Assembly (NCBI GenBank): GCA_035273585.1
Contig: DATEOX010000746.1
Coordinates: 1-57,796, forward strand
DNA: 57,796 nt
Source of the DNA: Thermoanaerobaculia bacterium
Lineage (GTDB): Bacteria > Acidobacteriota > Thermoanaerobaculia > Gp7-AA8
Reading direction: 5' to 3'
Positions within the stretch are counted from its first letter, which is position 1. Each line of letters opens with the position of its first letter. This document shows positions 11,972 through 37,934 of this stretch, piece by piece. The notes under the pieces were generated by a model. That model was given only the letters and a program-made list of their open reading frames with translations. It searched no databases and was not told where the DNA came from. The translations under genes were made by a program, and so were the position numbers.

Positions 11972-13443
11972 ATGCAGGACGAAATCGCACCGACTGGGAT
12001 CGCCGGCCTCGATGAAATCCTGCGAGGCGGCCTGCCCAGGCACCAGATGTACTTCGTACAGGGCGACCCGGGTTCCGGAAAGACGACGCTGTCATTTCAG
12101 TTTCTCCTGGAGGGAGTGGGTCGCGGCGAAAAAGCGCTTTATGTGACTCTGTCCGCTTCCGCGCGCGATCTGGAGCGCGTGGCGCGCTCCCATCGATGGG
12201 ACATCTCCTCCATCGACGTCTACGAGCAGTTTCGAAGTGCCAGATCCGCAGACACGACGATCTTTCGGCCATCCGAGGTCGAGCTGGCGAAGACCGTTCA
12301 AGCAATCCTGGCCGCCATTGATGATCGCCAGCCGGACCGGGTGGTGATCGACTCCCTCGGAGAGATTCGCCTTCTCGCCGAGAGCCCGCTTCGGTATCGA
12401 AAGCAACTGTTGGTTCTGAAGGACTTTTTCGCGACAGACAAATCACGGCGCTCGTACTCGATGACCACACGCTCGCGAAGGGCGACTCCGAAGTGCAGGG
12501 TCTCGCCGAGGAGGTGATCACACTCGGAGTCACGGCGCCGACATACGGCAACACGAGACGCACTCTCCAGGTGGTGAAGATGCGCGGCGTGTCGTTCCGC
12601 GGCGGCTTCCACGACTTCACGATTGAAAAGGGCGGGTTGATCGTCTTCCCACGACTGAGCGCAGGTCAGCACACGAGCAGCCGCGAGGCCGGTGCGATCA
12701 GCAGCGGCATCGCGGAGATCGACGCGCTCGTCGGCGGGGGACTGGAGCGCGGCTCCACCACAATGGCGATGGGACCGGCAGGGGTGGGCAAGTCATCGCT
12801 GGCCTTGCAGTTCGCAACGACCGCGGCGCTCGCTGGCGAGCGCGTGGTGTTTTTCATCTTCGAGGAACACCGCACCGTCTTCATGAAGTGCGCGGCATCG
12901 CTCGGCTTCGACCTTCCACCTCTGATCGAAAGCGGCCGCTTCACGGTTCAGCAGATCGATCCGGCGGAGATGTCGGCCGGCGAATTCGCCTACACCGTCC
13001 GCACGGTCGTGGAGAAAGACGAAACCTCGATGGTCATCATCGACAGCCTCAATGGCTACTTCAACGCCATGCCGGAGGAGCAGTTCCTCACGCTCCACCT
13101 GCACGAGTTCTTGAGCTATCTCAACGACGCCGCTGTCACCACGATCCTGATCGTGTCGCAGCATGGAGCACTCGGTCAGGTATCCTCGCCCGTCGACGTC
13201 AGCTACCTCGCCGACGCGGTGATTCTGCTCCGCTACTACGAGACCCGCGGCGCCTTCCGGCGCGCGATCTCGATGCTGAAGAAGCGGACGAGCGCCCATG
13301 AGCAGAGCGTTCGAGACTACCAACTGAGCTCGAACGGCGTTCGCGTCGGTGCGGCCCTTGAGGAGTTCCGCGGCATTCTCGCGGGGATGCAGTCAACGGA
13401 GGCTTCACCGCCGCATCCGAAGGCGAGAGAGAACGATCGCTAG
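11972..13443 (+). pseudogene. KaiC-like double RecA-superfamily ATPase, interrupted by a frameshift near 12430
   Basis: Two Walker A motifs (GDPGSGKTT; GPAGVGKSS). Track ORFs 11972-12517 and 12493-13443 are adjacent halves in different frames. LKDFF / RDRQITALVLDD join only if one base is added near 12430. Confidence 0.75.
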
Positions 13444-15346: not shown

Positions 15347-15447
15347 TTGTTAATCCGGTGGTCGCTCGTTCGAGTCCAGCCGCCACAGCGAATTTCCTTT
15401 CAGAGACTTAGCAGAGATCCGCAGCGTCCGATCGAATGGATGGGCGA
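15347..15447 (+). repeat. Direct repeat copy B: partial tRNA-Asn (anticodon loop to 3' end, T-stem mismatch, no CCA) plus downstream flank; att-like
   Basis: 96/101 identity with 7539-7639. No matching tRNA 5' half upstream (ggagatgccag instead of the anticodon stem). Confidence 0.9.
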
Positions 15448-15584
15448 TGAGTGACGTCGAACGGCTGGGTCAACCTACCAAACCGCCGCGCCGAACCGAG
15501 AGTGAACTGGAGCGATTCTCCTGTCGGAGCTACGGCCGGTACAACGCGTCCGCCGCCAGCGGCAGACGCATGGGAGATCCTCCG

Positions 15585-16020
15585 ATGAAAGGCCGGATTC
15601 CAGGTTTCAGCTACAACCCCAAGAAGCACGTCGCTCACTTCTCACTGTACTTCCCGAGACCAACGGCAAGGTACGTCGCGAAAAGACGGCGCACGCGGAA
15701 TCGCGCGAAGAGGCCATCCGGTTGTGGCAGGCCTTCCGCGACGAGATCAGCGGTAAGCCGCCCGAGCCCCAAGCCCGCCGCACAACCCAAGGCGATGACG
15801 TTCCGAACATTTGTCACTGAGTACCTGCAGAAGATCTGCGCACGACGCGCGGAGAAGACGCTCGCCATCTATCGCACAATCGCCACCACAAGCCTCATTC
15901 CGTACTTCGGCGAGAAGCCTCTCGACAGCATTCGCTCATGCGACGTCGAGGACTTCATGGCCTCGATGCTCACCGAGTGCAGTCCCGCGTACGTCAACAA
16001 CTGCGTCCGCATGGCGATCG
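15585..16020 (+). pseudogene. Tyrosine-recombinase (phage integrase) remnant: N-terminal arm and core-binding region only, frameshifted, catalytic domain deleted
   Basis: MKGRIPGFSYNPKKHVAHFSLYFP | ETNGKVRREKTAHAESREEAIRLWQAFRDEI (other frame) | TFRTFVTEYLQKICARRAEKTLAIYRTIATTSLIPYFGEKPLDSIRSCDVEDFM (SAM-like core-binding). No R..HxxR..Y catalytic region follows. Confidence 0.6.
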
Positions 16021-16029
16021 CCGGGAGCG

Positions 16030-16377
16030 GCAGCGAGGTGCAGGTGGCCGACGCGCGGGAGTTCTTTCGCAGTCTCGCCGTCTTCATCGCGCCGCTGTTT
16101 GCGGGCGGCGGGATGCACATCAAGGTCCTCGAGGCGATGTCCCTCGGCACGCCGATCGTCGCAACCCCCCTCGACGCGGGCGGCATCGACGCGACCCACG
16201 AACACGACCTCCTCCTCGCCGAGGATGCGGAGTCGTTCGCGGATGCGATCGTGCGCCTGCTGCGCGATCGCGAAACGGGCCCGCCGCCTCGGCCGCAACG
16301 CGCGGGCGACCGTCGCGGCGCGCTACGATCGCGACACGCTCGCGCGCGATCTGCTCAGCTTCTACGAATCGCTGTGA
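16030..16377 (+). pseudogene. Family-1 glycosyltransferase C-terminal fragment (frameshift near 16265)
   Basis: FIAPLFAGGGMHIKVLEAMSLGTPIVATPLDAGGID...LLLAEDAESFADAIVRLL, then RRLGRNARATVAARYDRDTLARDLLSFYESL in another frame. Fused in frame to the integrase remnant in track ORF 15447-16415. Confidence 0.6.
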
Positions 16378-17138
16378 GCACAGCCCGTGCGACGCGCCCC
16401 CACGCCTTGCCGTAGTGCGCCGTCCCCCACGTCAGCAGATCGTCGCGGAGCCGCACCGGATCGTGCCGCCGGATATGGTCGGGAGCGATGGTGCGGCCAT
16501 GGCCGTGCGTCACGCGCGCCTCGTCGACGATCCGCACGCGCCACCCCGCGCCGCGCGCGCGCAGACAGAATTCGAGGTCCTGACAGTAGAAGCGGTAGCG
16601 CTCGTCGAGCGGCCCCGCATCGCGCCAGACCTCCGCGCGAAGCGCCATCGCCGCGCCGCTGACCCAATCCACGTCGCTCGTCGTCCGCGCTTTCCCTCGC
16701 CGAAAGAAGCGTGCGTACTGCCCGAGCCCCGTCACCGCCGCACGATCCAGGCGAGCGTCGGCGTCGCCCACCGCTCCACTGCGGCGTGCCGTCGTCATTG
16801 AGCAACCGCGCGCCCGCAACGCCGAGCGTAGAGTCGTTCGCGAATGCCTCCTCGAACGCGCGCAACGCCTCGCCGTCGACGATGGCATCGCTGTTGAGCA
16901 GCAGAATCAACCCGCCCCCCGCCTCCCTTATCCCCCGGTTCGCCGCCACCGCAAACCCGCCATTCGCCTCCATCCGAACGACCCGCACCCAAGGCACCTC
17001 CCGCGCCAGCAGCGCCGCCGTCCCATCGCTTGAGCCGTCATCGACGACGATTACCTCCACCGCCGCGCCAACCGCACGGCAGCATTGCAAGGTCATCGCA
17101 GCGGTGTTGAAGGTGGGGATGACGACGGAGAGGCTCAT
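16355..17138 (-). pseudogene. Family-2 glycosyltransferase, frameshift near 16770
   Basis: MSLSVVIPTFNTA...VVDDGSSDGT...LLNSDAIV (GT2 N-terminus), then VDWVSGAAMALRAEVW...YCQDLEFCLRARGAGWRV in the overlapping track ORF 16355-16888. Confidence 0.7.
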
Positions 17139-17318
17139 GAACGCGCGCCCTAGTATTCACTGACGTGCGATCCGGTGGTGGTCGACAGGCTGACGAGGCC
17201 GTCCGTCACCATCAGCCGGCCGGCGCCTCCGTCGGCACGCGATGGCGTCGGAACATTTTTTCCTTCGCTGCCCCCACTTATTTGTCCGGTCCGTGTCTGA
17301 AGAGCCGAGGAGCTTTTC

Positions 17319-17858
17319 ATGCGAGTCCGATCGGTCGTTTTCGTGCTGTTGTTGTGGCTTTGCGTGCCCGCGCTGCTCGCGCAGGCCGATTCTGCCGGCG
17401 GTAGCGAAGGAGCGACCGCGGGCGAGACCGTGGAGACCTCCGACAGCCGCGGCGACGTGGCGCCGAGCACGCCCGTCGCACCGGTTCCGGGCTGGGTGCA
17501 CGTCGTCCGGCTTGCGGCGTTGGCGGGCCCGATCGCGTTTCTCGCCGCGGCGTGGCTCGCCGGCGGCATCGTCCACTACCGGCTCGTCCGCCGCGAGCAC
17601 GATCTCTTTCCGGCTGTGCGCGGCACGCGAATTCCGCAGACGATGCCGATGCTGATCAGCGCGGCGCTCTTCTTCGTGCCGGTGGCGCTTTTCGTCTTTT
17701 TCGAAATCCGCTCGCGCTGGGAGATCGCGCGGCACATCGGCGGCGTCGTCGACCAGTGGCATCCGGTGACGGCCCGCGCGTGGATGACGCTCTTCGGCTG
17801 TCTGGTGCTGGCGATCACTCCGTGGCTGTTCGCGCGCCGCGCCGACTCAGTGCGTTGA
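17319..17858 (+). CDS. Cluster gene 1: exported/membrane protein (signal peptide plus about 3 TM helices)
   Basis: GAGGAG precedes the ATG. MRVRSVVFVLLLWLCVPALLAQA signal, acidic linker, three hydrophobic segments. Stop lies 11 nt before the next start. Confidence 0.6.
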   Translation: MRVRSVVFVLLLWLCVPALLAQADSAGGSEGATAGETVETSDSRGDVAPSTPVAPVPGWVHVVRLAALAGPIAFLAAAWLAGGIVHYRLVRREHDLFPAVRGTRIPQTMPMLISAALFFVPVALFVFFEIRSRWEIARHIGGVVDQWHPVTARAWMTLFGCLVLAITPWLFARRADSVR

Positions 17859-17869
17859 GGAGAGGAACG

Positions 17870-20800
17870 ATGGCGAACTACCTGATTGCGGTGGGCGGTA
17901 CCGGGCAGCACGTCGCGCTCGCGGTCGCGGATTTCATCGCGCTGGCGCACGAGATCTTCCGCACGCCGGACGAATTTCCCGCCGTGAATCTGATCCTCGT
18001 CGACGCCGACCAGGCAGGCGGCGCCGATCAGGCCTCGGCGTGGCAGGAGGCGCGGGCGCGGCTCACGACGCTCGGTCTTTTCGGCGGCGACAGTTTCGAA
18101 TGCGTGCCGCTTCCCGTGCACTCGACGTTCGCCGACACGCGGAAGATGTACGAGTTCGTGAACCGTCTCGGCGCATCGTTCGGCCCGAATGCCGCCGACG
18201 CGCTGCTCCTGCACGAACAGCGCGAGGTCGACGTCACCAGCGGTTTCTACGCGCAGCCGCGCGTCGGCGCGATGATGGCCGACTGGCTCTTCGGCGAGGT
18301 CACGCGCGGCGAGGCCGTCAACCCGCAGCTTGCGCGCATCTTCCATCTCGCCGGTGATCCCGGAAACCGCATCGTCGTCGCCGGCTCGGGCGTCGGTGGC
18401 ACCGGAGCGGGGTTCGCGCCGGCGCTCCTCCGCCGCCTGTCGTCCGCGAACGGCGCCGGCGCCAGGCTGATGGCGCTGATGGCGACGGAGTGGTTCCGGC
18501 TCGCCGGCGCCTGCTCGAACCGCCTGTCGGAGTCGGTGCAGAAGACGAACGCGAACTCCGCGCTGTGGCACGCCGCTCACTCCGGTGCGGCCGCCGGCGT
18601 GCGGACCGTCCTGTTCGGACACCCGGACGTCTCGCGCGCGCCGGAGGAAGCGTGTCAGAACGGTGCGCTGCAGGCGCGCAAGGACAACCTGACCATTCCG
18701 TATTACGCCGCGGCGGCAGCGACGACGTTCTTCGCCGGCGACAACAGCGGCGGCACGCACATTCCGGCTGCGGCGTTCTCCGGCGATGCGCTCGCGCTGC
18801 CCGGCACGTTGCGGGTCACGCCGCGTCTCACGCTGAACGATCTGGTGCGGGCGAACGTCGAGGCGGTCGGCCGGCTGACGCTCGTCTCCGAGTACCTGCG
18901 CGAGCCATACCGCGGCTTCGTCATGCCGTTCCCGACGCTCACCGGCCGCATCGACGCGCTCGATGCGACCGAGCAGCCGCGCATAGACGCGGCGCTCGCC
19001 GCTAAGCGCGCGGCGCTCGCGAACCTCGGCAAGTCCGACGAAAAGCTGCCGGTCGCGCCGCGCCATCACCGCGGCCTTCCGACGCTGCGCGGCTGGATCC
19101 GCGGCAAGGTCGACGGTCCGTACGACCTCTGGAAAGACGCGCCGGTGCCGCAGCAGACGCCGGAGAGTCGCGCCGAGACCGTCGCCGCGGACGCCGACAG
19201 TGCCACGCTCCTCATCCGCAGGATCGGGTTCACCGGCCGCGTCGTCGGCGGCAATCTCGTCCCGGTGACGCAAGCGCAAGTCCGCGATCTGGTCACCGTC
19301 GACGACGTCGACGTTTCCAAAGTTCCGGCGTCCGACGCGGCCTCGCTGACCCTCGGCCACATCTTCCGCAGTTGGGAAGCGCGCGATGTCGAAGAGAAGC
19401 GGCAGATCGCCGACTCGCTCGTCGACGACGGCCGCGCGCGCCGCCCGGTGCTCGTCTGCGGCGACCACGGCGATCGTCCGCGTCAGTGGCTGAACCGCTG
19501 GCTGCTGCTAACGAACTTCCTCGTGGAAGGCCGCTTGACGGTGGAGCAACGCCCGCTGCCGTTCACCGCCGGGAAGGTTTTGTCGTATCGCGGCACGCCG
19601 GTCGGCGAGCTGTCGCGCGAATGGATTTGCCTGCCGCTGGTGAACGGCTACTGGAACGACGAAGCGACCGTCGCGGCGATGCACAGCGTCGCGTCGCGCC
19701 TCGAGACGCTGGCCACGTGGTGCCGCAACACCGCCGCGGTCGCGCGTTGCAAATCGTCGCGCCTGCCGGCGTGGCTGGACGTGCTCTTGTTCGCGACCGC
19801 CGACTTCGCCGGTGCGGCCAAGCAGCACACCGCGCAAAGTGTTCCCGTGCAGTGGACGGACGGCAGCACCGTGTCGCTCCCTCTGCCGAACGGCGTGAGC
19901 GGCGGGAACGACTGCGTCGCCGCTACCGCCGAGGCGTTCGGCGTGCTCGTCGAGCAGCCGCCGCCCGATGCGATGTCGCCGAAAGTGCGTGAGATCGTCG
20001 ACGAGATCTCGCGCATCGCGTTGACCGTGCCGAGCCTCGACGGCGGTGAAGCGAAAAGCGTGGTGTTCTCCGAGCTGCTGTCGCCCGCCGCGCGCGACTG
20101 CCTCTTCGGCGAGGTCATCGTCGACGTCGACGCACAGAAAGCCTGGCGTCTCACGTCGTCGTCGCGCATCGTCACGTCGGTCGCCGGTGAGGTGCTGACG
20201 GAGAACGTCGGCTGCTTCCGCACCGAGCAGCGGGCGAAGTGGCTCACGCCGGTCCGACACTCCTACATTCCGCTGCTGAAGTCCGGCGAGCTCGACGTGC
20301 GCACCGACGAACGGGGACAGGAGCTGCGCGTCACGCTGTCGCTGCACGGACGAACGTTCATGGAGTCGTACGCGGCGTCGCGCGTGCGGACGATCAATCC
20401 GCTCCTCCTGCACTGGCCGTCCTCGGTCGCCAGCGCGTCGGCGGATGTGACGGTGTTGTACGACGTCGCCGGCCACGGAGCAGGTCCGCAGACGCTCGAG
20501 GTGGTGATGCACGACGCCGCCTCGCGGTCCTGGAGCCGCTCACCGCAGCTGAGCCAGCGGCATTCGCTGCACTACGTCGCGACCGGATCGCGCATCCCGT
20601 ACGGCCTGACGTTCGAGCTCGAGAAGCGCGACGTCGGCTTCCTCAAGCTCGAGCGCAATCTTCGTCCTCTCGACGACGGCACGCAGCGCGTCGCCGTCGA
20701 CTTCGGCACATCGGCGACCGTCGTGGCGATCGAGGGCGGGCCGACTAATTCGCAGGTCGTCGACCTTCTGGAACCGCGCGCCGATGCGACCGCCGAGATA

Positions 20801-22156
20801 TGGAAGGGGAGCGAGCTGGCCGCGTTTCAGTGGTACGGCACGAGATCTGTCGACCCCGAGATCGTCACGAAGCGGCGCGCGCCGAGTGCGCTCGTCTACC
20901 TCGGCTCGCCCAACGACGAGCGTCCGAAACAGCCGCGGTACGGCGATCACGTGCTTCTCGACCAGGACGACTGGCGGTGGGAGAACAGCGATGCGTCACT
21001 GATGTTCGACATCAAGTGGACTCGCGACGCGGCGTACCGGCAGACGTATCTGCTTCATCACCTGGAGCAGTGCATCGCCGCGGCACTGAGCAAGGGGACA
21101 CTGCACAGCCGCAGCCTTTCCGTGACGTTCACGATGCCTCTGCGGCAGCGTGCGCGTGCGGAGGACTTCGTGCGCGAGATCGAGGCGGTTACAGCGGAGC
21201 TCGTCCGGCGGACCGGCGTCGCGATCGAGCCGCGCTTCGCGTACGAGTCCGAGGTCATCGCGCCGCCGGAAGCTCCGCGGGAGGACGTCGACGCGATCGT
21301 CGTCGCCGATCTCGGCGGCGGCACGCTCGACGTTTTCGCGAAGTACTTCGGCGCGGCGCGGCGGGCGGATTCGAACGAGGTCGTTTTCGATAGTGCGCGC
21401 ATCGGCGGCCATTCGCTCGTGGAGTGGCTGACCCGGGACATGCGCGGGGCGGAGCTTGCCGACTACCGGCGCCTCCTCCGTCTCGGGCAGGTCCGGCCGC
21501 TGGACGACAACTCGTCGCGCGTCGCGCGCGATTACTTCGACGTCGTGAAGCGCTTCACGGCCCTTTGGATGGATTCGGTCTGGCGGTACTGGACCGGCGA
21601 GGCGCGGCCGGGCCGGGTGCACGTGCAACTGCTCGGAATGGGGTGGTCGTTGCCTGGGTCCCCCGGCGATCAGATCGCGCTGCACCTCAGCGACATCGCG
21701 CGTGCCGTCGATTCGCCGCTGACGTACACGCGGTTCGAGGACGCCCTCGTGCGCGTCAATCCTAAAGAGCTTTTGGCGATGCGCGCGCTGCGCTGCCGCG
21801 GCGCGTCGAGCAGTGACTTCGTCAACTTCGCTCCAGCGTCGGTGAACGGAATTGAAGTGACGGTCGCGGGGCAGATCCGCCGCGACGACGAGGCGCTCGT
21901 CGGCCTCGGCGCCAACTCGCCCGTGGTGACGATCAGCCGCGCCGGCCTCGCGCGTCTCGGCAAGTTGACCGGCGCACGCGAGGAGATCGTCGCCGAAGTC
22001 CGCGACCGCACGCGCGGCTGTCTCACCTCGCGCTCGAACGGTGTCGACGTACACGATGGCGCCGTCATCGAAGGGACGAACATCTGGGTTGCCAGTCCGC
22101 TCGCGATTGCAGCGGAGATGTACACGCGGCAAGTGCTGCTGCACGTGCACGGGTGA
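17870..22156 (+). CDS. Cluster gene 2: 1428-aa fusion of an N-terminal FtsZ/tubulin-like GTPase domain and a C-terminal Hsp70/actin-like (ASKHA) ATPase domain
   Basis: Start MANYLIAVGGTGQHV follows GAGGAGAGG. Four collinear FtsZ-like motifs: IAVGGTGQHVA (FtsZ IGVGGGGGNAV), LILVDADQ (AVNTDAQ), SGFYAQPRVGAMM (GAGANPEVGRNA), VVAGSGVGGTGAGFAP (AAGMGGGTGTGAAP). ASKHA motifs: VAVDFGTSATVVA (20690-20728), VVADLGGGTLDV (21299-21334), IGGHSLVEWL, VQLLGMGWSLPG. Confidence 0.75.
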   Translation: MANYLIAVGGTGQHVALAVADFIALAHEIFRTPDEFPAVNLILVDADQAGGADQASAWQEARARLTTLGLFGGDSFECVPLPVHSTFADTRKMYEFVNRLGASFGPNAADALLLHEQREVDVTSGFYAQPRVGAMMADWLFGEVTRGEAVNPQLARIFHLAGDPGNRIVVAGSGVGGTGAGFAPALLRRLSSANGAGARLMALMATEWFRLAGACSNRLSESVQKTNANSALWHAAHSGAAAGVRTVLFGHPDVSRAPEEACQNGALQARKDNLTIPYYAAAAATTFFAGDNSGGTHIPAAAFSGDALALPGTLRVTPRLTLNDLVRANVEAVGRLTLVSEYLREPYRGFVMPFPTLTGRIDALDATEQPRIDAALAAKRAALANLGKSDEKLPVAPRHHRGLPTLRGWIRGKVDGPYDLWKDAPVPQQTPESRAETVAADADSATLLIRRIGFTGRVVGGNLVPVTQAQVRDLVTVDDVDVSKVPASDAASLTLGHIFRSWEARDVEEKRQIADSLVDDGRARRPVLVCGDHGDRPRQWLNRWLLLTNFLVEGRLTVEQRPLPFTAGKVLSYRGTPVGELSREWICLPLVNGYWNDEATVAAMHSVASRLETLATWCRNTAAVARCKSSRLPAWLDVLLFATADFAGAAKQHTAQSVPVQWTDGSTVSLPLPNGVSGGNDCVAATAEAFGVLVEQPPPDAMSPKVREIVDEISRIALTVPSLDGGEAKSVVFSELLSPAARDCLFGEVIVDVDAQKAWRLTSSSRIVTSVAGEVLTENVGCFRTEQRAKWLTPVRHSYIPLLKSGELDVRTDERGQELRVTLSLHGRTFMESYAASRVRTINPLLLHWPSSVASASADVTVLYDVAGHGAGPQTLEVVMHDAASRSWSRSPQLSQRHSLHYVATGSRIPYGLTFELEKRDVGFLKLERNLRPLDDGTQRVAVDFGTSATVVAIEGGPTNSQVVDLLEPRADATAEIWKGSELAAFQWYGTRSVDPEIVTKRRAPSALVYLGSPNDERPKQPRYGDHVLLDQDDWRWENSDASLMFDIKWTRDAAYRQTYLLHHLEQCIAAALSKGTLHSRSLSVTFTMPLRQRARAEDFVREIEAVTAELVRRTGVAIEPRFAYESEVIAPPEAPREDVDAIVVADLGGGTLDVFAKYFGAARRADSNEVVFDSARIGGHSLVEWLTRDMRGAELADYRRLLRLGQVRPLDDNSSRVARDYFDVVKRFTALWMDSVWRYWTGEARPGRVHVQLLGMGWSLPGSPGDQIALHLSDIARAVDSPLTYTRFEDALVRVNPKELLAMRALRCRGASSSDFVNFAPASVNGIEVTVAGQIRRDDEALVGLGANSPVVTISRAGLARLGKLTGAREEIVAEVRDRTRGCLTSRSNGVDVHDGAVIEGTNIWVASPLAIAAEMYTRQVLLHVHG

Positions 22157-22998
22157 TCGCGATGACGAGATCACCACTGCTCGCGCTGCTGTTCCTGCTC
22201 ACGTTCGCCGTGTCGTTCGCCGATGGCGCGCCGAGCCTGAAACCGCCGGCACCCGCGGCGCGAGAAGCCGCGTACGCGCCGGCCCCTGCCGCGCCGTCGG
22301 TCGCCGCCATCCCGTGGCAACTGACCGTCGGCTCGCTGGTGAACGCGTTGCTCATCGTCCTCGTGATCGTCGGTCTCGTTCTGCAGCTGCGTAGCGCGGA
22401 GCGGCGGTTGGTCGCGACGCTGAGATACCAGGACCGCGACGCTGCAGAACGCGAAAAACGGCAGCAGACCGACCTGCAGCACTGGAAGACGGAGCTGCGC
22501 AAGGAAATCGAATCGCTGCATGCGGCGCTCGCGCAGATTCCGGCGGACACCGAGCGGCTGATCGCGTCGAAGTTGCCGAAACAGCAGCAGACGCCGGCGC
22601 AAGCGGCGTCGTCGCGGCTGGCGTCCGCGGTGCTCGACGTTCGCGATGAGCGGCGTGGCGAGGATGGGCTCGCGCAGTTGCTGGTCGCCGCGAACCGCAT
22701 CGTCCAGGAGAGCTCGATGACGCTGGAGACGTTCCGCGAACGGATGGCGGGCGTGTCGTCGCGTGTGTTGCCGTACGGGCAGGTCGTGGCCGATGCGCCC
22801 GTCGCGTTCATCGTCGAGCACGGCGGGTCGGCGTACGCGGTGCCGAACGTCGTGAAGCCGACGCGGTTTCCAAACGACTGGTTCAACCGCGCCGACTTCG
22901 GCGTGAACGACGAGATCCGCCGCGTTGTCTCGCTGCCCAGACTACGGCGACGCGGTGATGGGTTCGACGTCGTGGAGCGGGGAGTATTCGAGCGATGA
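22153..22998 (+). CDS. Cluster gene 3: membrane protein with signal peptide/TM, coiled coil and C-terminal globular domain
   Basis: GTG overlaps the gene 2 stop (GTGA). LLALLFLLTFAVSFADG; TM LVNALLIVLVIVGLVLQL; heptad-like charged region. No recognised family. Confidence 0.6.
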   Translation: MIAMTRSPLLALLFLLTFAVSFADGAPSLKPPAPAAREAAYAPAPAAPSVAAIPWQLTVGSLVNALLIVLVIVGLVLQLRSAERRLVATLRYQDRDAAEREKRQQTDLQHWKTELRKEIESLHAALAQIPADTERLIASKLPKQQQTPAQAASSRLASAVLDVRDERRGEDGLAQLLVAANRIVQESSMTLETFRERMAGVSSRVLPYGQVVADAPVAFIVEHGGSAYAVPNVVKPTRFPNDWFNRADFGVNDEIRRVVSLPRLRRRGDGFDVVERGVFER

Positions 22999-24389
22999 GC
23001 GTGCTCTCGCTGCAGTCTGCGACGCACGCTCGCGCCCGCCGGACGTTCTGGGAGCCGTGGGCGGCGCTCGCCGTCGCCGGGGCGCTTTACTTGCGCGCGG
23101 CCGGCGCGCAGTGGGGCGGCGTCGTCGCACTCGGCGTCGAACTGCTCCTCGCCGTCGTCATGCGAGCGCGATTGCTCCGACGCGCGGAGGAGGAGATCGA
23201 ATGGCTCGATGAGCACCTTCCGCGGGAGCTGGCCATCGGCGACGCCGATCGCCTGATCGGCAGCGCCGCGGAACGGGTGGAGGGGATGTTCGGCACCGCC
23301 TCGAGCACCGTCCTCGCGACCGGCATGGCGGCGTCGGCGTTCCTCCTCTTGTTCTACGCCGGTGCGGGGGTCACGGGCGGAATCGTCGCCGTCGCACCGA
23401 AGGCGTTTGTCGCGACTGGTTACGCCATCCTCTGCGCGCTGGCGTTCACGCGCGACGCGCATCACCTCATCGCCGGCACGATCGAGCCGCTGCGCCGCAG
23501 GAAGCTCGACGAAGCGGGCCGCAACGGCGGCATCGTCAGCGTCGCCGTTGCACCGCCCGCCGAGCCGCCGGTGGCGTCGAAATTCGAAGACTTGATCTCG
23601 CAGCTCATCTCCATGCAGATCGCGCATCTGCGGGAGCTGAACGAGACCAACCGCCTTCTCTCCGCCTCCGCGTCGGAGCGCATCGACGAGGACTCCGGCG
23701 CCGTCCGCGTCAAGCTGTCGAAGGGGCTGACGGAGTTTCGGAAAGGCGTCGAGCGACTCGGTGAAACCGTCGAGTCGCTGAACGGCAGGCTCGACGCGCT
23801 GACGACCGACGAATCGGCGCTCTTCGAGCACCATCGCCGCGAGCTCGTCGCCGAGATCGCACAGCTGCCGCAGCAGGTCGCCGACCGCGCCGCCGGCATG
23901 ATGAGCGGATCGATCGCGCAGGTTGAAGAGCGCGTGCGGCAAGCGCTGCAGACCGTACATGAGGATGAAAACCGCCGCGCGCGCGACTACCTCACGAACG
24001 AGTTCGCGAAAATGCGCGACCAGTTCGAGCTGACGGAGCGTTCCGTGTCGGCGATCGCGACGCGGTTCAACGTCGTCGTCGGATCGCTCGACGAGCTCGC
24101 ATCGGCATTCGACCGGAGCGCGAAATCGGTCGTCACCAGCGCCGCCGACTTCACGCGTGAGGCCGAGTCGCTTGCGACGTCCGTTACCACCGCGCTCGGC
24201 CAGCTCGAGGACGCCGGTGCGACGAAGGCGTCGCTGCTCGCGCCGTTGACCGAAGCCGCGACGGCGGTGCGGAAAGCGTCATCCGTGGTCGCCACCGACA
24301 TGCGCAAAGTCGCCGCCGAACGCGAGCGCCTCGGGCGGGTGCGGCTCAAGATCCTCGAGCTGCTCCCGAATCAGCAGGGCAACTCATGA
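22995..24389 (+). CDS. Cluster gene 4: MotA/ExbB/TolQ-like channel subunit with about 300-aa C-terminal helical tail (ZorA-like architecture)
   Basis: ATGA overlap on both sides. Four hydrophobic helices. GMFGT (23283-23297; ExbB GLFGT) and VAPKAFVATG (23391-23420; ExbB VAPGIAEALLAT) are collinear. The remaining residues are helical and low in proline. Family call rests on weak motif similarity. Confidence 0.55.
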   Translation: MSVLSLQSATHARARRTFWEPWAALAVAGALYLRAAGAQWGGVVALGVELLLAVVMRARLLRRAEEEIEWLDEHLPRELAIGDADRLIGSAAERVEGMFGTASSTVLATGMAASAFLLLFYAGAGVTGGIVAVAPKAFVATGYAILCALAFTRDAHHLIAGTIEPLRRRKLDEAGRNGGIVSVAVAPPAEPPVASKFEDLISQLISMQIAHLRELNETNRLLSASASERIDEDSGAVRVKLSKGLTEFRKGVERLGETVESLNGRLDALTTDESALFEHHRRELVAEIAQLPQQVADRAAGMMSGSIAQVEERVRQALQTVHEDENRRARDYLTNEFAKMRDQFELTERSVSAIATRFNVVVGSLDELASAFDRSAKSVVTSAADFTREAESLATSVTTALGQLEDAGATKASLLAPLTEAATAVRKASSVVATDMRKVAAERERLGRVRLKILELLPNQQGNS

Positions 24390-25090
24390 TCGGGCGCGGC
24401 GTCAACTACTGGATCTCGTGGGCCGATCTCACGTTCATGCTCTTCATCGCCGGCCTTGCCACCGTGGCGATCAGCGAGGAGCATCGCGGCGACGCGGAGC
24501 GGCAGCTCGACGCCGCCCGGGTCGAGATCGCCCGGATGCGCAGGACGATGAATCCCTGCGCGAACGCGGAGTCCTTTCTGAACGGCTTCTCGGCGTGCGT
24601 CGCGCGGACCACCGGGCGCCGGCAGGCGCAGCGCAGCGGCTGTTTCGTCACCGTCGGCGAGGACGTAATCCGCTTCGCGAACGGCAAGGCCGTGCCGATC
24701 GACCCGGCGTCGGCGGATTCGGTGGCGGGCTGTCTTTACAACAATGCGCTGCAGTTCGCGGCGGCGGATCCCGGCGCGTTCGACGCGATCACCATCAACG
24801 TTGACGGACACACCGATTGCGTCGGCGATGCGAGCGACAACCAGGCGCTCGGCGCCGACCGTGCGCTGAGCGTCTACTCGCGCGTGCTGGCGCGCGCCGA
24901 GGATGACAGGAGCTGGACGACCGCCGACGCCAAGCGTGGATTCCTGAGCCGCATCGCCGTCCGCTCGTTCGGCGAGACCCGGCCGGTGGAACGGTCGCGG
25001 TGCACGACCGCGACCGGGTGGGCGGATGACCGGCGGGTCGTCGTCTCCGTGCAACTCGCGACCGAGCGCGCGAGGGACGGCCGCTCGTGA
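24386..25090 (+). CDS. Cluster gene 5: MotB-like stator/anchor protein (TM Asp plus OmpA-like peptidoglycan-binding domain)
   Basis: YWISWADLTFMLFIAGL parallels MotB WKIAYADFMTAMMAFF (Asp codon 24425-24427). NVDGHTDCVGDASDNQALGADRALSVYSRVL is the OmpA/MotB C-terminal signature (24797-24889). Confidence 0.8.
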   Translation: MIGRGVNYWISWADLTFMLFIAGLATVAISEEHRGDAERQLDAARVEIARMRRTMNPCANAESFLNGFSACVARTTGRRQAQRSGCFVTVGEDVIRFANGKAVPIDPASADSVAGCLYNNALQFAAADPGAFDAITINVDGHTDCVGDASDNQALGADRALSVYSRVLARAEDDRSWTTADAKRGFLSRIAVRSFGETRPVERSRCTTATGWADDRRVVVSVQLATERARDGRS

Positions 25091-25100
25091 GGAGAACCGC

Positions 25101-25280
25101 GTGATCTCGATCCTGTTGATGGTGTCGGTCGCCGTGCTCCTCGCTGTCGTGCTCGTGCTGGCGCGCCGCACCGGTCAGCGGCAGACGCGGCTCGAGCTCG
25201 AAAACCGCGCGATGCAGGTCGAGCTCGATCGCCATCGCGACGTCGCGCATTCAATTCTGCGGGAACTGCAGAGCCCATGA
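25101..25280 (+). CDS. Cluster gene 6: 59-aa single-TM protein
   Basis: GTG 7 nt after GAGGAG. ISILLMVSVAVLLAVVLVLA plus a charged helix. Stop overlaps the next ATG (ATGA). Confidence 0.45.
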   Translation: MISILLMVSVAVLLAVVLVLARRTGQRQTRLELENRAMQVELDRHRDVAHSILRELQSP

Positions 25281-26491
25281 AGAACGTCGTCGTCATCGCA
25301 GCTCTCGTGAGCTTCGCCGCATGCGATCCCGCCGGCGGCGAGCGACCGCTGATCGCGACTTGCAGGCCGGCCGTCACGGTGCTCTTTCCGGCGGCGAAAC
25401 CGGCTTCGGTGAAAGCGCCTTCCGCGCCGCAAGCCGGCGAGGTTGTCCAGGTGTACTGGGACGTTTCGCGCTCGATGCACGACTTTTCGGTGACCCGCCG
25501 CGCCGAGGAGTTGACGGACGATCTCGCGCCGGTCGTCGCGGCACTCGACAGCGGCGTCCTCCTGCAGGCGCACGCCGCGAGCATCGAGCACTACGGAGTC
25601 GGCGAAACGATCGTGCCGCTGCCGAGCGCGCGCGCCGCACTGCATCCCGCCGCGAAGCGTACCGCGCTGCATCTTGCGGCGGAGCAGATCGGCGGCGCAC
25701 TCGCGAACGGCGCCGCGCAGGCCGCACTCGTCGTTTCCGACATGGAGGTCGACGCGGTGCCGCGGACGTCCGCGGGCGATGCGACGGTCTGCGGCAACGT
25801 GCCGCTGCCGAGCACCGGCCAGGCAGGGCCGCTCTTCGGCCGCTGTTTCGAAAGCGCGGTGCTCGCATCCGGCGCTTCCCGCACGCGCGCCAGCCTGCTT
25901 GCGCACGTGTTCCGCAAACGCTCGCACGGCCGCGAGCTGTTCATCCTGCTGCTCGCGACCGATCGCGCGTTCGGGACGCGCATCTCGAACGAGATCGCCC
26001 GCCGCCTCGACTTTACGCGTCACGTCATCTTCGATTCCGGCTCCGTTTCGGCCGGCAACGTCGCCGGCTGCAGGATGGCGTTGTTTTCGGAGGACATGAA
26101 CCGCAGCCGCACAACGTGCGGCGTTAAGTGCTTCGATCCCGAGCTCGCCATTCAGGCGGAATGCGACGTTCGCCGCGACGCGATGAATGCCTGGATCGAG
26201 CCGGTCGGGCAGGGCGGCGACGGCGTCAGCTACGAGTCGGTACCGAAGAAGCGCGGCGACCGCGAGCAGCAGGCGGTCGTCCGCTTCGCGGTTCCGTGCA
26301 GCGCGCGGGCGGGGCGCTTCCAGGCGACGGTGCCGTATTCATGGCGGCAACAGACTCCGTGGTCCGCGGATCGCGCGGACCCGTTCGCGCAGCGCCCCAG
26401 CGTCCGCGATCTGTTCGACAGTCTCGCCGACGCCATCGTCCGCACCGTCGCGCCGCCACGACTGCGGATCGGGATCGATCTCGTCAAATGA
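25277..26491 (+). CDS. Cluster gene 7: vWA-like lipoprotein
   Basis: Lipobox-like VSFAAC. MIDAS-like VYWDVSRSM (DxSxS, 25460-25474) and ALVVSDMEVD. Cys-rich C-terminal part. Confidence 0.55.
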   Translation: MKNVVVIAALVSFAACDPAGGERPLIATCRPAVTVLFPAAKPASVKAPSAPQAGEVVQVYWDVSRSMHDFSVTRRAEELTDDLAPVVAALDSGVLLQAHAASIEHYGVGETIVPLPSARAALHPAAKRTALHLAAEQIGGALANGAAQAALVVSDMEVDAVPRTSAGDATVCGNVPLPSTGQAGPLFGRCFESAVLASGASRTRASLLAHVFRKRSHGRELFILLLATDRAFGTRISNEIARRLDFTRHVIFDSGSVSAGNVAGCRMALFSEDMNRSRTTCGVKCFDPELAIQAECDVRRDAMNAWIEPVGQGGDGVSYESVPKKRGDREQQAVVRFAVPCSARAGRFQATVPYSWRQQTPWSADRADPFAQRPSVRDLFDSLADAIVRTVAPPRLRIGIDLVK

Positions 26492-26607
26492 ACGGCGGCG
26501 CTTCTCCGGCAGTCGATCGCGCGATCAGTTGCGGACTCGCGGTCGCGATCGTCTGCATCGCGCTCGTTTTCGCCGCCGTACTGCTCGTCGGTGCGCTTGC
26601 TGACTGA
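26488..26607 (+). CDS. Cluster gene 8: 39-aa single-TM peptide
   Basis: ATGA overlap with gene 7. CGLAVAIVCIALVFAAVLLVGAL. Below the track length cutoff as an independent ORF. Confidence 0.4.
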   Translation: MNGGASPAVDRAISCGLAVAIVCIALVFAAVLLVGALAD

Positions 26608-26616
26608 TGGCTCGTC

Positions 26617-27087
26617 ATGACTCGTGAAACTGCCATCACCGGCGCGATTCTCGGCGAGCTTCTCCCCGAGCTGCAGTACGCCGCGCCTGTTCTCCTGGAG
26701 CGCTCCGATCGCGGCGATCCGCTCGTCGCGTCGACCTCGCCGGCCGACATCGGGTTCGAGACCGGTGCGGTCGATTCGGTGCTGCTCGAGCTCTTCAAGA
26801 CGCTCGTGCCGTACGTCAAGGCGGCGCTCGGGTGGGGCGTGCTGCGCGTCGTGCAGACGTGGCTGGCGTCGCAGCGCGAGTCGCGGCACCACGCGGAGCT
26901 GGTGGCGAGCCTCACCGCGCTCCTCGCGGAGAACGCGAAGCTGCGGCAAGCGTTCGAGAGCATCGCGGCCGTGCGGAGCCGCCGTGAGGGAGTGGCGGCG
27001 TCGACGGCGGACGTCGTCGATTCGATCGCCGACGCCGCCGAACGGATCGGCGACGCCGCCGATCCCGACGAACCGCAGCGCGACTGA
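26617..27087 (+). CDS. Cluster gene 9: hypothetical soluble helical protein
   Basis: 156-aa ORF, 9 nt after gene 8, GC-rich third positions. No recognised motif. Confidence 0.55.
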   Translation: MTRETAITGAILGELLPELQYAAPVLLERSDRGDPLVASTSPADIGFETGAVDSVLLELFKTLVPYVKAALGWGVLRVVQTWLASQRESRHHAELVASLTALLAENAKLRQAFESIAAVRSRREGVAASTADVVDSIADAAERIGDAADPDEPQRD

Positions 27088-27097
27088 AGACGCGGCA

Positions 27098-29851: not shown

Positions 29852-30510
29852 GTGTTGACGCCGCACGAGAACATCAGCTGGAGCGCGACGCGCGGAGAAC
29901 CGTGGATGCTCTCCTTCACGATCGCGCGGTCGAAGAAGCGCTGATCGACGTCCGGCAATACGGCCCTGACGGCGTCGGCGATGCAGCGGCATTGCGGCTC
30001 CCCATGCTGTCCCGAATACGCCTCGACACAACCTGCAACGAAGCGCGAACTGCCGGAAGTTCGCTTCAGGTAGATGACGATGCCGCGCGCGAGGAGCGCC
30101 GCTTCCGGTCCGTTGCACGGAATGTCGTCCATCAGCGACGTTCCTGCCGCGAATACCGACGCGCGATCGGGCGGCGACGGCAGGCTTTCCTGAAGGCGTG
30201 CTTGCCGCTTCTGCAGGCCGATAGACAAAGCCGCCGCGCCGGTGAACCGCTCCACCAGCGCGCGGCCTTCCACGTCCCGCGGCAGCTTGCAGGACGTTCG
30301 CAGCCGCTGTGCAATACCCGCCAGGAAAAACTGCTCGTTCTGCGTGAACGCGTAGCGGCAACTTTCCTCGACGGCAAAGCGGGCGTCGCCGAACGGGAGG
30401 GATCGATAGCGTTCCGGTGTGGGGCCGCAGGCAGTCTGTGCGTTGGCTGCAACGCTAACGAAAGCCGCCGCTGCGACGATCGCGGCGCGAACATGCTGCG
30501 CCTTCGTCAA
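29845..30510 (-). CDS. Secreted Cys-rich protein
   Basis: Proposed TTG start overlaps the upstream stop (TTGA), giving MTKAQHVRAAIVAAAAFVSVAANA signal and 10 Cys. The 3' end overlaps the gene 10 stop by 7 nt (convergent). Start choice is uncertain. Confidence 0.5.
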   Translation of the reverse strand: MTKAQHVRAAIVAAAAFVSVAANAQTACGPTPERYRSLPFGDARFAVEESCRYAFTQNEQFFLAGIAQRLRTSCKLPRDVEGRALVERFTGAAALSIGLQKRQARLQESLPSPPDRASVFAAGTSLMDDIPCNGPEAALLARGIVIYLKRTSGSSRFVAGCVEAYSGQHGEPQCRCIADAVRAVLPDVDQRFFDRAIVKESIHGSPRVALQLMFSCGVNTY

Positions 30511-37172: not shown

Positions 37173-37934
37173 CTAGCGCCGTTCGATCGGTGCTTCGACG
37201 ATCTTGGTGATCGTGCCGACGAGGAACCACTCACTGCGATGGCCGAGCCGAACGGGGTCGTAATCGGGGTTGTGCTTGTCGAGCACGACCTGCCCTTTCG
37301 ACTCCTCGCGCCAGTAGCCGATCATGCCGCCTTCCGCGCGTACGTAAACCGCAACGACGTCACGGTCGCGCGGGCTCTGCAGGCGCGTGTCGACGAGGAC
37401 CTTGTAGCCACTCTGGAAGAAGTCCGCCATCGAATCGCCGATCACCCGGATCACCTGCAGCGCACCGTTGCGCACGTCGCGAATCGAATGGAGCACCTCA
37501 GTCGTGAGGAGCGGCCGGTCGGCTTCGATACCTGATGAGCCGGCGGCTGCCGGCATGTCCGGGACGACCCAGGCGTGCAGTGCTTGTGGGAAATCGAATT
37601 CGCGCTCGATGAATCGCTCGGGGCGGATAGGGAAGCGGTATTCAGGCACGGACCGCGGCTCGTCGAGCGTGTCGAGGCTGAGACGCTGGCGAAGGAATTC
37701 GACCCAGTCGCGGATCCTGCGGCGGTCGCTGATCGTGATGTCCAGCGTGACTTCGCCGAGAAGATCGCTCACCGTGGTGTCGAGGCTTTCGGCAATTCGC
37801 TTGACGGTGAAGACGCTCGGCTCGGCCGCGGGGCCTCGCTGCTTCTGCTCCGCGCGCTTGCGATACGGCTCGTAGTCCGGATCGTTTTCGAGGATCCGCG
37901 AGATTTGCGTTGTCTTTCTTGAACGCGGCGGCAT
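37173..37934 (-). CDS. Phage-type repressor: HTH plus S24 (LexA/CI-like) peptidase domain
   Basis: 253 aa. FTVKRIAESLDTTVSDLLGE helix-turn-helix-like segment. VIRVIGDSMADFFQSGYKVLVD is the S24 Ser motif. Confidence 0.75.
   Translation of the reverse strand: MPPRSRKTTQISRILENDPDYEPYRKRAEQKQRGPAAEPSVFTVKRIAESLDTTVSDLLGEVTLDITISDRRRIRDWVEFLRQRLSLDTLDEPRSVPEYRFPIRPERFIEREFDFPQALHAWVVPDMPAAAGSSGIEADRPLLTTEVLHSIRDVRNGALQVIRVIGDSMADFFQSGYKVLVDTRLQSPRDRDVVAVYVRAEGGMIGYWREESKGQVVLDKHNPDYDPVRLGHRSEWFLVGTITKIVEAPIERR

Follow-up and report, generated by a model that had tools for sequence, protein, structure and literature searches.

The window analysed here is a 57,796-nucleotide contig (DATEOX010000746.1 of assembly GCA_035273585.1), taken at its full length, from a metagenome-assembled genome (MAG) of Thermoanaerobaculia (Acidobacteriota). 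On its forward strand, between positions 17870 and 22156, it encodes a bacterial protein of 1428 residues in which a GTPase domain of tubulin/FtsZ type is fused to an ATPase domain of Hsp70 type. The gene lies in a conserved, translationally coupled six-gene operon that also encodes a candidate ion-driven stator related to ZorA and ZorB of the Zorya anti-phage system. A database copy identical to the 1428-amino-acid (aa) protein carries the label "hypothetical protein", and so do all members of the fusion family. The cassette consists of the following genes:

17319..17858, + strand: small membrane protein of 179 aa with a signal-like N-terminus and three predicted transmembrane segments (family F12; transmembrane prediction)
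17870..22156, + strand: large cytoplasmic protein of 1428 aa with no predicted transmembrane segment (translation, Shine-Dalgarno site, full-length homologues)
22153..22998, + strand: membrane-anchored protein of 281 aa with two hydrophobic segments, a coiled coil and a C-terminal domain
22995..24389, + strand: putative ZorA-like (MotA/ExbB-type) membrane protein of 464 aa (PADLOC, topology, hhalign, joint profile)
24386..25090, + strand: ZorB/MotB-like protein with an N-terminal transmembrane segment that carries a conserved Asp, and an OmpA-type domain (PADLOC, Pfam, profile)
25277..26491, + strand: predicted lipoprotein of 404 aa with the lipobox ...SFAAC, family F7/F1 (sequence, hhalign)

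Translation of the fusion gene begins at ATG 17870, which lies 11 nt after the stop codon of the upstream gene and is preceded by a Shine-Dalgarno sequence (GGAGAGG). The N-termini of all homologues agree with this start (MANYLIAVGG), and the guanine-plus-cytosine (GC) content at third codon positions of ORF 17870-22156 (0.85) is consistent with a coding frame. A longer open reading frame (ORF) that starts with GTG and spans 17552-22156 was rejected, as it overlaps the upstream gene and the homologues begin at MANYLIAVGG; it is a high-GC artefact. The initial annotation of this DNA, made from the letters alone, had called the ORF a fusion of two nucleotide-binding folds, and the translation contains each motif that it quoted: GGTGAG is residues 176-181 (18395-18412), VAVDFGTSATVVA occupies 20690-20728, VVADLGGGTLDV occupies 21299-21334, and VQLLGMGWSLPG begins at 21620. 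No missed stop codon or frameshift splits the ORF, and relatives at 30% identity span 99% of its length. From N- to C-terminus, the protein consists of the tubulin/FtsZ-like domain, a variable middle of ~600 aa, the Hsp70-like domain, and a tail of ~120 aa.

Motif conservation was read from an alignment of 51 full-length fused proteins that are 17-29% identical to the window protein; all statements of invariance below refer to these 51 sequences. The N-terminal part of the gene contains three features:

17870..18769, + strand: N-terminal FtsZ/tubulin-superfamily GTPase-like domain, residues 1-300 (Foldseek, profile, Pfam)
17894..17911, + strand: T1-like loop GGTGQH, residues 9-14 (G9, G10, G12 and H14 invariant)
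18395..18412, + strand: T4 tubulin-signature-like loop GGTGAG, residues 176-181 (invariance; aligned to CetZ and FtsZ)

A glycine-rich T1 loop (AVGGTGQH) stands at the very N-terminus of the domain, and the T4 signature GGGTG[ST]G is present as the variant [VI]GGTG[AS]G, which aligns to GGTGS/GGTGTG of CetZ and FtsZ. When the window protein alone was compared with Pfam, Tubulin (PF00091) scored 12.5-17.6 bits against a cutoff of 33 and Tubulin_2 (PF13809) scored 12.4 against 27, and no other family competed for the domain. Among 20 diverse N domains, Tubulin_2 was matched in 11 (best E-value 7.9e-7) and Tubulin in 10 (best 3.8e-5). A profile of the N domain only, searched against all Protein Data Bank (PDB) sequences, returned 16 matches at E<=10, and all 16 belong to the tubulin superfamily (CetZ 3zid, 0.0035; FtsZ, 0.18; gamma-tubulin, ~1; TubZ, 1.6). 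An AlphaFold2 (AF2) model of residues 1-935 has a mean predicted local distance difference test (pLDDT) score of 58.5, with 60-80 within the N domain. A Foldseek search with this model filled nearly the whole top 50 of PDB matches with FtsZ, tubulin and CetZ. The best of these was Bacillus subtilis FtsZ (4u39_B; E=6.2e-4, probability 1.0, ~250 columns), with a template modelling score (TM-score) of 0.39 normalised to the target, and the best match among viral models (BFVD) was a phage tubulin (E=9.9e-4). Because Pfam matches of the relatives, the PDB profile search, and Foldseek matches in both PDB and viral models are all tubulin-family, we place the N domain in the FtsZ/tubulin superfamily, nearest to the divergent FtsZl1/Tubulin_2 branch. 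The tubulin/FtsZ-like fold first proposed for this half is thus borne out, with model and profile matching FtsZ, tubulin, CetZ and TubZ only.

In tubulin and FtsZ, the T7 loop and the activation domain complete the active site of the next subunit and so make GTPase activity dependent on polymerisation. The invariant columns C-terminal to T4 hold no NxDxx[DE]-like (T7) motif, and the model is poor at residues 207-320. As neither a T7 loop nor an activation domain was identified in the alignment or in this part of the model, polymerisation-coupled GTPase activity is doubtful.

The C-terminal domain, from which we derived four features, was assigned by family profile, Foldseek and secondary structure:

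20675..21799, + strand: Hsp70-type ASKHA ATPase-like domain, residues ~936-1310
20696..20713, + strand: phosphate-1 motif VDFGTS, residues 943-948 (D944 and G946 invariant, S948 nearly so; compare GIDLGTTNS of DnaK)
21305..21331, + strand: phosphate-2 motif ADLGGGTLD, residues 1146-1154 (invariance; aligned to DLGGGTFD of Hsp70)
21635..21655, + strand: adenosine-motif-like GMGWSLP, residues 1256-1262 (G1256 and W1259 invariant)

No curated model in Pfam, including HSP70 (PF00012), or in NCBIfam matched this domain in the window protein or in 17 homologues. The link to Hsp70 emerges only with the 51-sequence family profile, whose best 60 matches in the PDB are all Hsp70 nucleotide-binding domains, none of them actin, MreB or ParM (DnaK 8w1m, 2.2e-5; mortalin, 9.5e-5; HSPA1A, ~3e-4). 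The profile aligns gvDFGTshtVvAv with GIDLGTTNSVIAV at phosphate-1, ywEShAAa with iNEPTAAA at connect-1, where E1126-S1127 lie within YES(x)VIAP, and vaDLGGGTLDL with vfDLGGGTFDV at phosphate-2. Judged from its position, GMGWSLP may be equivalent to the GG..R.P motif of Hsp70, and the invariant K1049 is a candidate for the catalytic Lys.

An AF2 model of residues 926-1428 (mean pLDDT 57, predicted TM-score 0.63) shows the duplicated beta-beta-beta-alpha-beta-alpha-beta-alpha order. Foldseek found 129 PDB matches to it at E<=1e-3, and all 50 that were listed have the ASKHA fold; Hsp70s come first (Ssz1 6sr6, E=5e-8; DnaK), followed by MreB, ParM, FtsA and PilM, with TM-scores of 0.35-0.5. The actin/Hsp70 (ASKHA) fold that had been predicted for this half was therefore recovered, with matches to ASKHA-fold proteins only. 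By its sequence matches, the domain appears to be Hsp70-like, not actin-like. As in the nucleotide-binding domain of Hsp70/DnaK, the phosphate-1, connect-1 (with the catalytic Glu), phosphate-2 (DLGGGTxD) and adenosine-type motifs are invariant and stand in the right order. Unlike Hsp70/DnaK, the domain has no Pfam HSP70 match and carries a large low-confidence insertion between phosphate-1 and the first long helix. With only ~120 residues left after the ATPase core, a canonical substrate-binding domain and its lid are unlikely. Neither a J-domain nor a J-protein was found, and a GrpE match in the next gene (E=0.0057) falls below the cutoff, in a coiled coil. GrpE is the exchange factor of Hsp70; we did not accept such a role for the 281-aa gene, which is poorly conserved and has this single sub-cutoff Pfam match in a coiled-coil stretch.

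The assignment of the C domain bears directly on the initial annotation, which had read the protein as a dual cytomotive one whose tubulin-like and actin-like domains both polymerise, giving coupled GTP- and ATP-dependent filaments. The superfamilies of both folds do include filament formers, MreB, ParM and FtsA are among the Foldseek matches of the C domain, and FtsZ and FtsA make a natural tubulin-like/actin-like pair. We nevertheless consider this reading very unlikely, since the C-domain profile matches Hsp70 nucleotide-binding domains only (60 listed) and shares with them the NEPTAAA-like and DLGGGT(F/L)D motifs, and no T7-like NxDxxD/E stands among the invariant columns after T4 (T6-H7 likewise was not found in FtsZl1). 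No Hsp70 nucleotide-binding domain is known to polymerise. Of the claim that two cytomotive/chaperone NTPase folds are fused, the two folds stand and the ASKHA half as an actin-type cytomotive domain does not, all 60 listed profile matches being Hsp70s; the results do not support coupled GTP- and ATP-dependent assembly in the form in which it was put, given an Hsp70-like C domain and the T7 and activation elements that were not found.

Between the two domains lies a stretch without a recognisable family (by AF2, hidden Markov model (HMM) and PDB search):

18860..20674, + strand: middle region, residues ~331-935

Within it, residues 490-760 form a well-predicted mixed alpha/beta domain (AF2 pLDDT 75-90). 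The middle region has no sequence match in the PDB, and the Foldseek matches of the 1-935 model derive wholly from the N domain. An HMM of the middle region matches closer relatives only and hence points to conservation within the nearer clade. No Pfam, NCBIfam or PADLOC model spans the C-terminal two thirds of the fusion protein. Taken alone, the window protein gives only database matches below threshold; its domains were identified from family profiles and from the invariance of the motifs.

By word-indexed search, we obtained 32 close full-length relatives of the window protein (67-73% identity) and two distant ones (30% identity, 99% coverage), one of which has a precomputed Pfam Tubulin_2 match. 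The same search with the C domain gave three fragments only, and it took an exhaustive search by HMMER, queried with the C-terminal 503 residues, to retrieve 149 representative clusters at E<=1e-3 (protein clusters formed at 50% identity). Local domain HMMs divided these into two forms. Both domains are present in ~70 proteins of 1400-1800 aa, with GGTG at ~9 and again at ~165-200 and DxGGGT at ~1200-1300, and the C domain stands alone in ~70 proteins of 750-1150 aa. Full length is retained in relatives down to 17-30% identity.

In the N domain, the invariant columns are G9, G10, G12 and H14 (T1), D45 and D47 (T2-like), G125 (T3-like G..G.P.VG), and S173, G176, G177, T178 and G179 (T4). Those in the C domain are D944 and G946 (phosphate-1), K1049, E1126 and S1127 (connect-1), D1147, L1148, G1149, G1150 and D1154 (phosphate-2), S1175, G1179, and G1256 and W1259 (adenosine). 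The nucleotide-binding motifs are thus almost exactly the set of invariant columns, which rules out chance and sequencing artefact, and conservation of the motif residues among homologues, on which the fusion claim hung, is confirmed. The same columns bear on the idea that convergent glycine-rich nucleotide-binding loops sit on unrelated folds, or that both domains are catalytically dead scaffolds. The database matches of the window protein itself, all below family thresholds, and structure models of low to moderate confidence would fit such an idea. It is highly improbable in view of the tubulin motifs (four) and Hsp70 motifs (four or five), which are collinear and stay invariant at ~20% identity, of retained catalytic-type residues (D944, K1049, E1126, D1147), and of the agreement among Pfam, profile searches of the PDB and Foldseek comparisons of the de novo models, each of which gives the expected superfamily only.

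The two halves also occur as separate genes, a check that the initial annotation had proposed and that came out positive (loci L052 and L057 and more than 200 stand-alone tubulin-like proteins). At L052, in another lineage, the gene of a 434-aa protein with GGTGQ and GGTGGG (N-domain HMM, E=4.7e-8) ends one base before that of a 1041-aa protein, which carries the Hsp70-like domain, and this clean split is present on two independent contigs. At L057 (GCA_020632765.1, 2715-18034), the unfused forms are a 449-aa tubulin-like gene (E=8.6e-33) and an 818-aa Hsp70-like gene. This locus also encodes a bona fide Pfam HSP70/MreB_Mbl protein of 537 aa that matches the C-domain HMM at 5.6e-6, and no ZorAB pair was detectable there. 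HEPN/MNT genes lie close by. An N-domain profile found at least 216 stand-alone relatives of ~445 aa, many with Pfam Tubulin_2 or Tubulin matches. These separate-gene forms support a functional partnership between the two halves.

Two loci depart further from the fused layout. The 1821-aa member P0047 (L055, 357-5822) has at its N-terminus HSDR_N, a domain of restriction-enzyme type, and a Ser/Thr kinase domain, and the tubulin-like domain C-terminal to them has lost both GGTG motifs. At L056 (159-6078), a ZorA-like protein (609 aa) and a ZorB-like protein (314 aa, with a cysteine-rich insert) are directly followed by a 1014-aa protein that has an Hsp70-like domain and lacks a tubulin-like one; a few kb further 3', there are BrxC/BrxD-like and DEAD-helicase genes. 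At L011, L033, L043, L049 and other MAG loci, the big gene is found in two or three overlapping or adjacent pieces, and because many such loci are long-read assemblies, some of these splits may stem from frameshift errors and not from a real division of the gene.

The motor operon around the fusion gene is the main new finding beyond the initial annotation, which missed the ZorA/ZorB-like genes. In the window, genes 17870-22156, 22153-22998, 22995-24389 and 24386-25090 are joined by 4-nt overlaps, and 17319-17858 is tightly packed before them. The same cassette surrounds the 30%-identical homologue at L001. In a scan of one genome per species, 49 loci were found, in Thermoanaerobaculia, Vicinamibacterales, Bryobacterales, Rhodothermales, Longimicrobiales/Gemmatimonadota, a few Proteobacteria and one Methanosarcinales MAG, and the operon is conserved in at least 40 loci from Acidobacteriota, Rhodothermales, Gemmatimonadota and others. 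Clustering of the neighbours gave a conserved order: the small protein with three transmembrane segments, the big protein, a membrane-anchored protein (F5/F8/F24), a protein of ~480 aa (F1), F3 (a membrane protein of ~540 aa with a helical tail) and F2 (a ~230-aa protein with an OmpA domain). An OmpA-family gene is conserved in 25 loci. Profile-profile comparison ties the window clade to this order, the 464-aa protein corresponding to F3 and the 404-aa protein to F1.

The individual genes of the cassette are conserved to different degrees. The first gene, which belongs to families F4/F6 in other clades, lies directly 5' of the big gene in most loci; its product is weakly similar to the counterpart at L001 (hhalign F4~F6, 97.7%; F12 to F4/F6, weak). 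The 281-aa gene has a 4-nt overlap with both neighbours, is poorly conserved, and encodes a protein weakly homologous to a 390-aa protein at L001 (hhalign F24~F5, 52.9%, E=1.4e-4). The 404-aa lipoprotein belongs with F1 (hhalign F7~F1, 97.1%, E=5.3e-11), and its family F7/F1 occurs at L001, L003-L008 and L010; no Pfam or PDB match was found for it. Its DVSRS motif, MIDAS-like (DxSxS), and the precedent of FtsZl1 operons led us to consider a von Willebrand factor A (vWA) domain. We rejected it, as neither Pfam (31 members scanned) nor the PDB gave a vWA match, and the motif occurs only in the window clade, the family retaining only D and the first S. The cassette ends with a last feature:

26544..26562, + strand: terminator-like hairpin with a T-rich tail, just after the last cassette gene

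Terminator-like sites in this region are no more numerous than in shuffled sequence, so that only the position of the hairpin is suggestive.

The stator pair connects the operon to Zorya. The window ZorB-like protein matches PADLOC ZorB (E=4.6e-9) and Pfam OmpA (E=3.6e-6), and its N-terminal transmembrane segment reads W-I-S-W-A-D14-L-T, with W9 and D14 invariant in the family. The F2 transmembrane segment likewise has an invariant W...D (W-P-A-x-[AT]-D-L-M-T), and an invariant W...D in a transmembrane segment is a hallmark of MotB-type channel plugs. Against the PDB, the F2 family profile (A7) matched ZorB of Shewanella type I Zorya over its full length (8vvn_B, 3.9e-22), then E. coli ZorB (8qyd_F, 1.6e-9), and after these MotB and PomB. 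The Rhodothermales member at L016 matches PADLOC ZorB1 at 7.1e-44.

For the 464-aa protein, the predicted topology comprises TM1, a TM2-TM3 hairpin and a helical cytoplasmic tail of ~310 aa, where TM denotes a transmembrane segment. PADLOC ZorA matches in the tail region (E=1.7e-5), and Pfam MotA_ExbB gave no match. A direct ZorA assignment was rejected, as PDB searches with this protein gave only helical-bundle and coiled-coil noise. It is connected to F3 by hhalign (F9~F3, 97.3%, E=2.2e-11 over TM2-TM3), and the joint F3/F9 profile (A6) matches ZorA 8vvn_C at 9.9e-13 from the conserved TM2 motif onwards, E. coli ZorA 8qyd_A at 4.7e-9 and type II ZorA at 8e-8. The PDB codes of the Zorya structures were identified from Mariano et al. 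2025 (PMC11890865). Because single-sequence and clade-profile searches of the PDB failed to reach ZorA, the ZorA call for the window protein is transitive only; by this route, together with topology and gene position, the protein is probably ZorA-like. Going by these matches, the pair appears closest to ZorAB, not to flagellar MotAB, ExbBD or TolQR. PADLOC gave no match to ZorC, ZorD, ZorE, ZorF or ZorG among the cassette proteins of the window, L016 and L020.

ZorAB forms a peptidoglycan-anchored 5:2 rotary unit whose ion flux is needed for defence and which recruits nuclease-type partners (PMC11890865). We compared the cassette with Zorya types I-III (ZorAB with ZorCD, ZorE or ZorFG; structures 8QYD, 8VVN and 8VVI). 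Like Zorya, it has a MotA-like gene with a long cytoplasmic helical tail directly 5' of, and overlapping, a MotB-like gene whose product combines a transmembrane Asp with an OmpA-type peptidoglycan-binding domain; its family profiles match ZorA/ZorB best among all solved structures; and it is an accessory operon of patchy distribution. Unlike Zorya, ZorAB come last in the cassette gene order, and their partners are the tubulin-like/Hsp70-like giant and the small three-transmembrane, membrane-anchored and lipoprotein-like proteins, with no ZorC-G and no nuclease detected. The cassette hosts are Acidobacteriota, Rhodothermales and Gemmatimonadota rather than Proteobacteria. The operon seems to be a relative of the anti-phage system Zorya that has not been described before.

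The big protein has its own relatives in the literature. The FtsZl1 family, Pfam Tubulin_2 (PF13809), was described by Makarova and Koonin (2010, PMC2875224) and predicted to act at the membrane; its members have an FtsZ-like N domain, a long coiled coil and an alpha-helical C domain, T6-H7 could not be found in them, and their operons encode vWA proteins, P-loop GTPases, kinases, OmpA-family proteins and many membrane proteins (PMC2875224). The window protein is likewise large, with a divergent N-terminal FtsZ-like domain that has T1 and T4 and is without a recognisable T6-H7-T7, in an FtsZ-independent context and an operon with an OmpA-family protein and many membrane proteins. Unlike FtsZl1, it has a mixed alpha/beta middle region and, in its C-terminal part, an Hsp70-type ATPase; the operon pairs an OmpA protein of recognisable ZorB type with a ZorA-like protein; and Pfam and PDB scans of the lipoprotein family showed no vWA or GTPase partner in the cassette.

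In the divisome, the tubulin-fold GTPase FtsZ works with the ASKHA-fold ATPase FtsA at the cytoplasmic membrane. The same two superfamilies are here fused or encoded side by side. Unlike FtsZ-FtsA, the homology is at superfamily level only, the ASKHA part is Hsp70-like rather than FtsA-like, no membrane-targeting helix is present, and the ZorAB-like operon takes the place of the division and cell wall (dcw) cluster.

The N-domain family (2010) and ZorAB (2018 onwards) are thus already known. The fusion or pairing with an Hsp70-type ATPase, the link to a ZorAB-type motor, and the rest of the cassette were not found in searchable full-text literature, Pfam, NCBIfam or PADLOC. The initial annotation had supposed the fusion to be undescribed, and our literature search agrees with it.

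Taken together, these results lead us to propose that the three-part cytoplasmic protein is the large soluble component of a conserved six-gene envelope system built around a ZorA/ZorB-type 5:2 ion-driven stator, with a role that is likeliest in conflict or anti-phage defence, or in a response to envelope damage; we give this reading a probability of about 0.6. A new Zorya-type envelope-coupled system is the most likely identity of the operon. We regard the big protein as its soluble arm because no transmembrane segment is predicted in it. In the mechanism that we envisage, the peptidoglycan-anchored motor would sense envelope perturbation, as in Zorya, and ion flow would turn or move the ZorA-like cytoplasmic tail, which would recruit or activate the big protein instead of ZorC-G nuclease-type partners. 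The tubulin-like domain might then give GTP-dependent self-association at the membrane, and the Hsp70-like domain might use ATP to clamp or remodel either a partner or the assembly itself.

Several features would favour a conflict or defence role: a stator closest to ZorAB, patchy multi-copy spread, the HSDR_N/kinase variant, the neighbours, and a GC-rich block with an integrase remnant. They are hints, not statistics. Several operon copies occur per genome, and their distribution is patchy. L018 (94-23888), on the Rhodothermales chromosome OZ241874.1, holds two complete operon copies in tandem, the second with an extra 1114-aa paralogue that has the Hsp70-like domain only; the same genome has a third locus (L024), and another Rhodothermales genome has both L047 and L049. 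Most of the loci that we inspected have conflict-type neighbours (SymE, Schlafen/AlbA_2, Panacea, HEPN/MNT, BrxC/BrxD, caspase/CHAT and RelA-SpoT/LSDAT). The window operon is part of a block with a high GC content of 0.68-0.705 (window positions 16000-30000), between flanks of 0.62-0.65. Just 5' of it, ORF 15447-16415 encodes 322 aa with phage-integrase SAM-like and glycosyltransferase group 1 matches, and is either an odd chimera or an integrase remnant. The block and this ORF suggest an acquired island.

A number of observations weigh against the proposed conflict system. First, the defence-type neighbours are anecdotal rather than a statistical enrichment, the family is absent from plasmids and phages by tblastn, and all members come from uncultured organisms. 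Second, no nuclease or other obvious effector domain was found in the cassette by Pfam, NCBIfam or PADLOC, and at L053 the big gene has no adjacent ZorAB pair, its neighbours being ordinary metabolism and TonB genes. Third, neither the window 464-aa protein alone nor a clade-only profile reaches ZorA in the PDB, and the PADLOC ZorA matches fall mostly in the low-complexity helical tail. Fourth, the big protein alone reaches no Pfam, NCBIfam or PADLOC threshold, its tubulin-family sequence matches are weak and centred on the T4 loop, and its N domain yielded no T7 loop or activation-domain elements; both AF2 models are modest (mean pLDDT 57 and 58.5, from shallow alignments), with TM-scores of 0.3-0.5.

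Some of these points fit a housekeeping membrane-remodelling or cytoskeletal machine of the kind proposed for FtsZl1 operons, in which the big protein would form filaments or scaffolds at the membrane and the MotAB-like unit would anchor or power remodelling, vesicles, surface motility or transport, with no immune role. The N domain is of FtsZl1/Tubulin_2 type, and FtsZl1 operons were reported with OmpA-family and many membrane proteins (PMC2875224). Most cassette proteins are membrane proteins, the searches revealed neither a nuclease nor a toxin domain, the family is a chromosomal one, and the surroundings of L053 are those of ordinary metabolism. On the other side stand the stator, with ZorA/ZorB as its best PDB matches and the PADLOC ZorB1 match of the L016 member (7e-44), and the patchy, multi-copy spread with tandem duplication; frequent conflict-type neighbours and the HSDR_N/kinase fusion better fit an accessory conflict system. 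We consider membrane remodelling a serious rival to defence, if a rather unlikely one, and both may coincide, for example in membrane repair after an envelope breach.

The proposed envelope-coupled conflict system can be put in a more specific form, namely a fourth, undescribed class of Zorya-type immune systems driven by the proton-motive force. Its non-nuclease cytoplasmic arm would be a tubulin-like GTPase fused to or paired with an Hsp70-like ATPase, and an envelope breach would trigger nucleotide-driven assembly or remodelling at the ZorA tail. This form is possible, and we advance it tentatively. If it is true, prokaryotes would have an immune mechanism that relies on NTPases of cytoskeleton and chaperone type.

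The protein would add a new domain architecture to the tubulin/FtsZ and Hsp70 superfamilies, the two folds being fused in ~70 clusters and genetically paired in many more. For the FtsZl1-type proteins, long without an explanation, it provides a concrete set of partners that can be tested, namely a ZorAB-type ion-driven motor. If the operon is defensive, ZorAB motors can drive non-nuclease effectors, and a GTPase/ATPase assembly machine joins the bacterial immunity repertoire. If it is not, it would encode an envelope-remodelling machine that has gone unrecognised, although it is common in Acidobacteriota, Rhodothermales and Gemmatimonadota, phyla that abound in soil and sea and for which there is almost no cell biology.

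Other genes of the window lie outside the cassette. A 1075-aa gene (26624-29851, + strand) that follows the terminator-like hairpin was considered as a cassette member and excluded, as it is not conserved beside homologous operons. Its product has ~12 predicted transmembrane segments and a weak Peptidase_M48 match, and it overlaps a 1222-aa ORF in another frame (27538-31206, + strand). In the lower-GC region 5' of the operon, 12493-13443 (+ strand) encodes a KaiC/RecA-like ATPase (Pfam KaiC, E=3.6e-38). On the 3' side of the island, an AAA ATPase (34961-36508, + strand) and a LexA-like Peptidase_S24 protein (37173-37934, - strand) look like ordinary chromosomal context.

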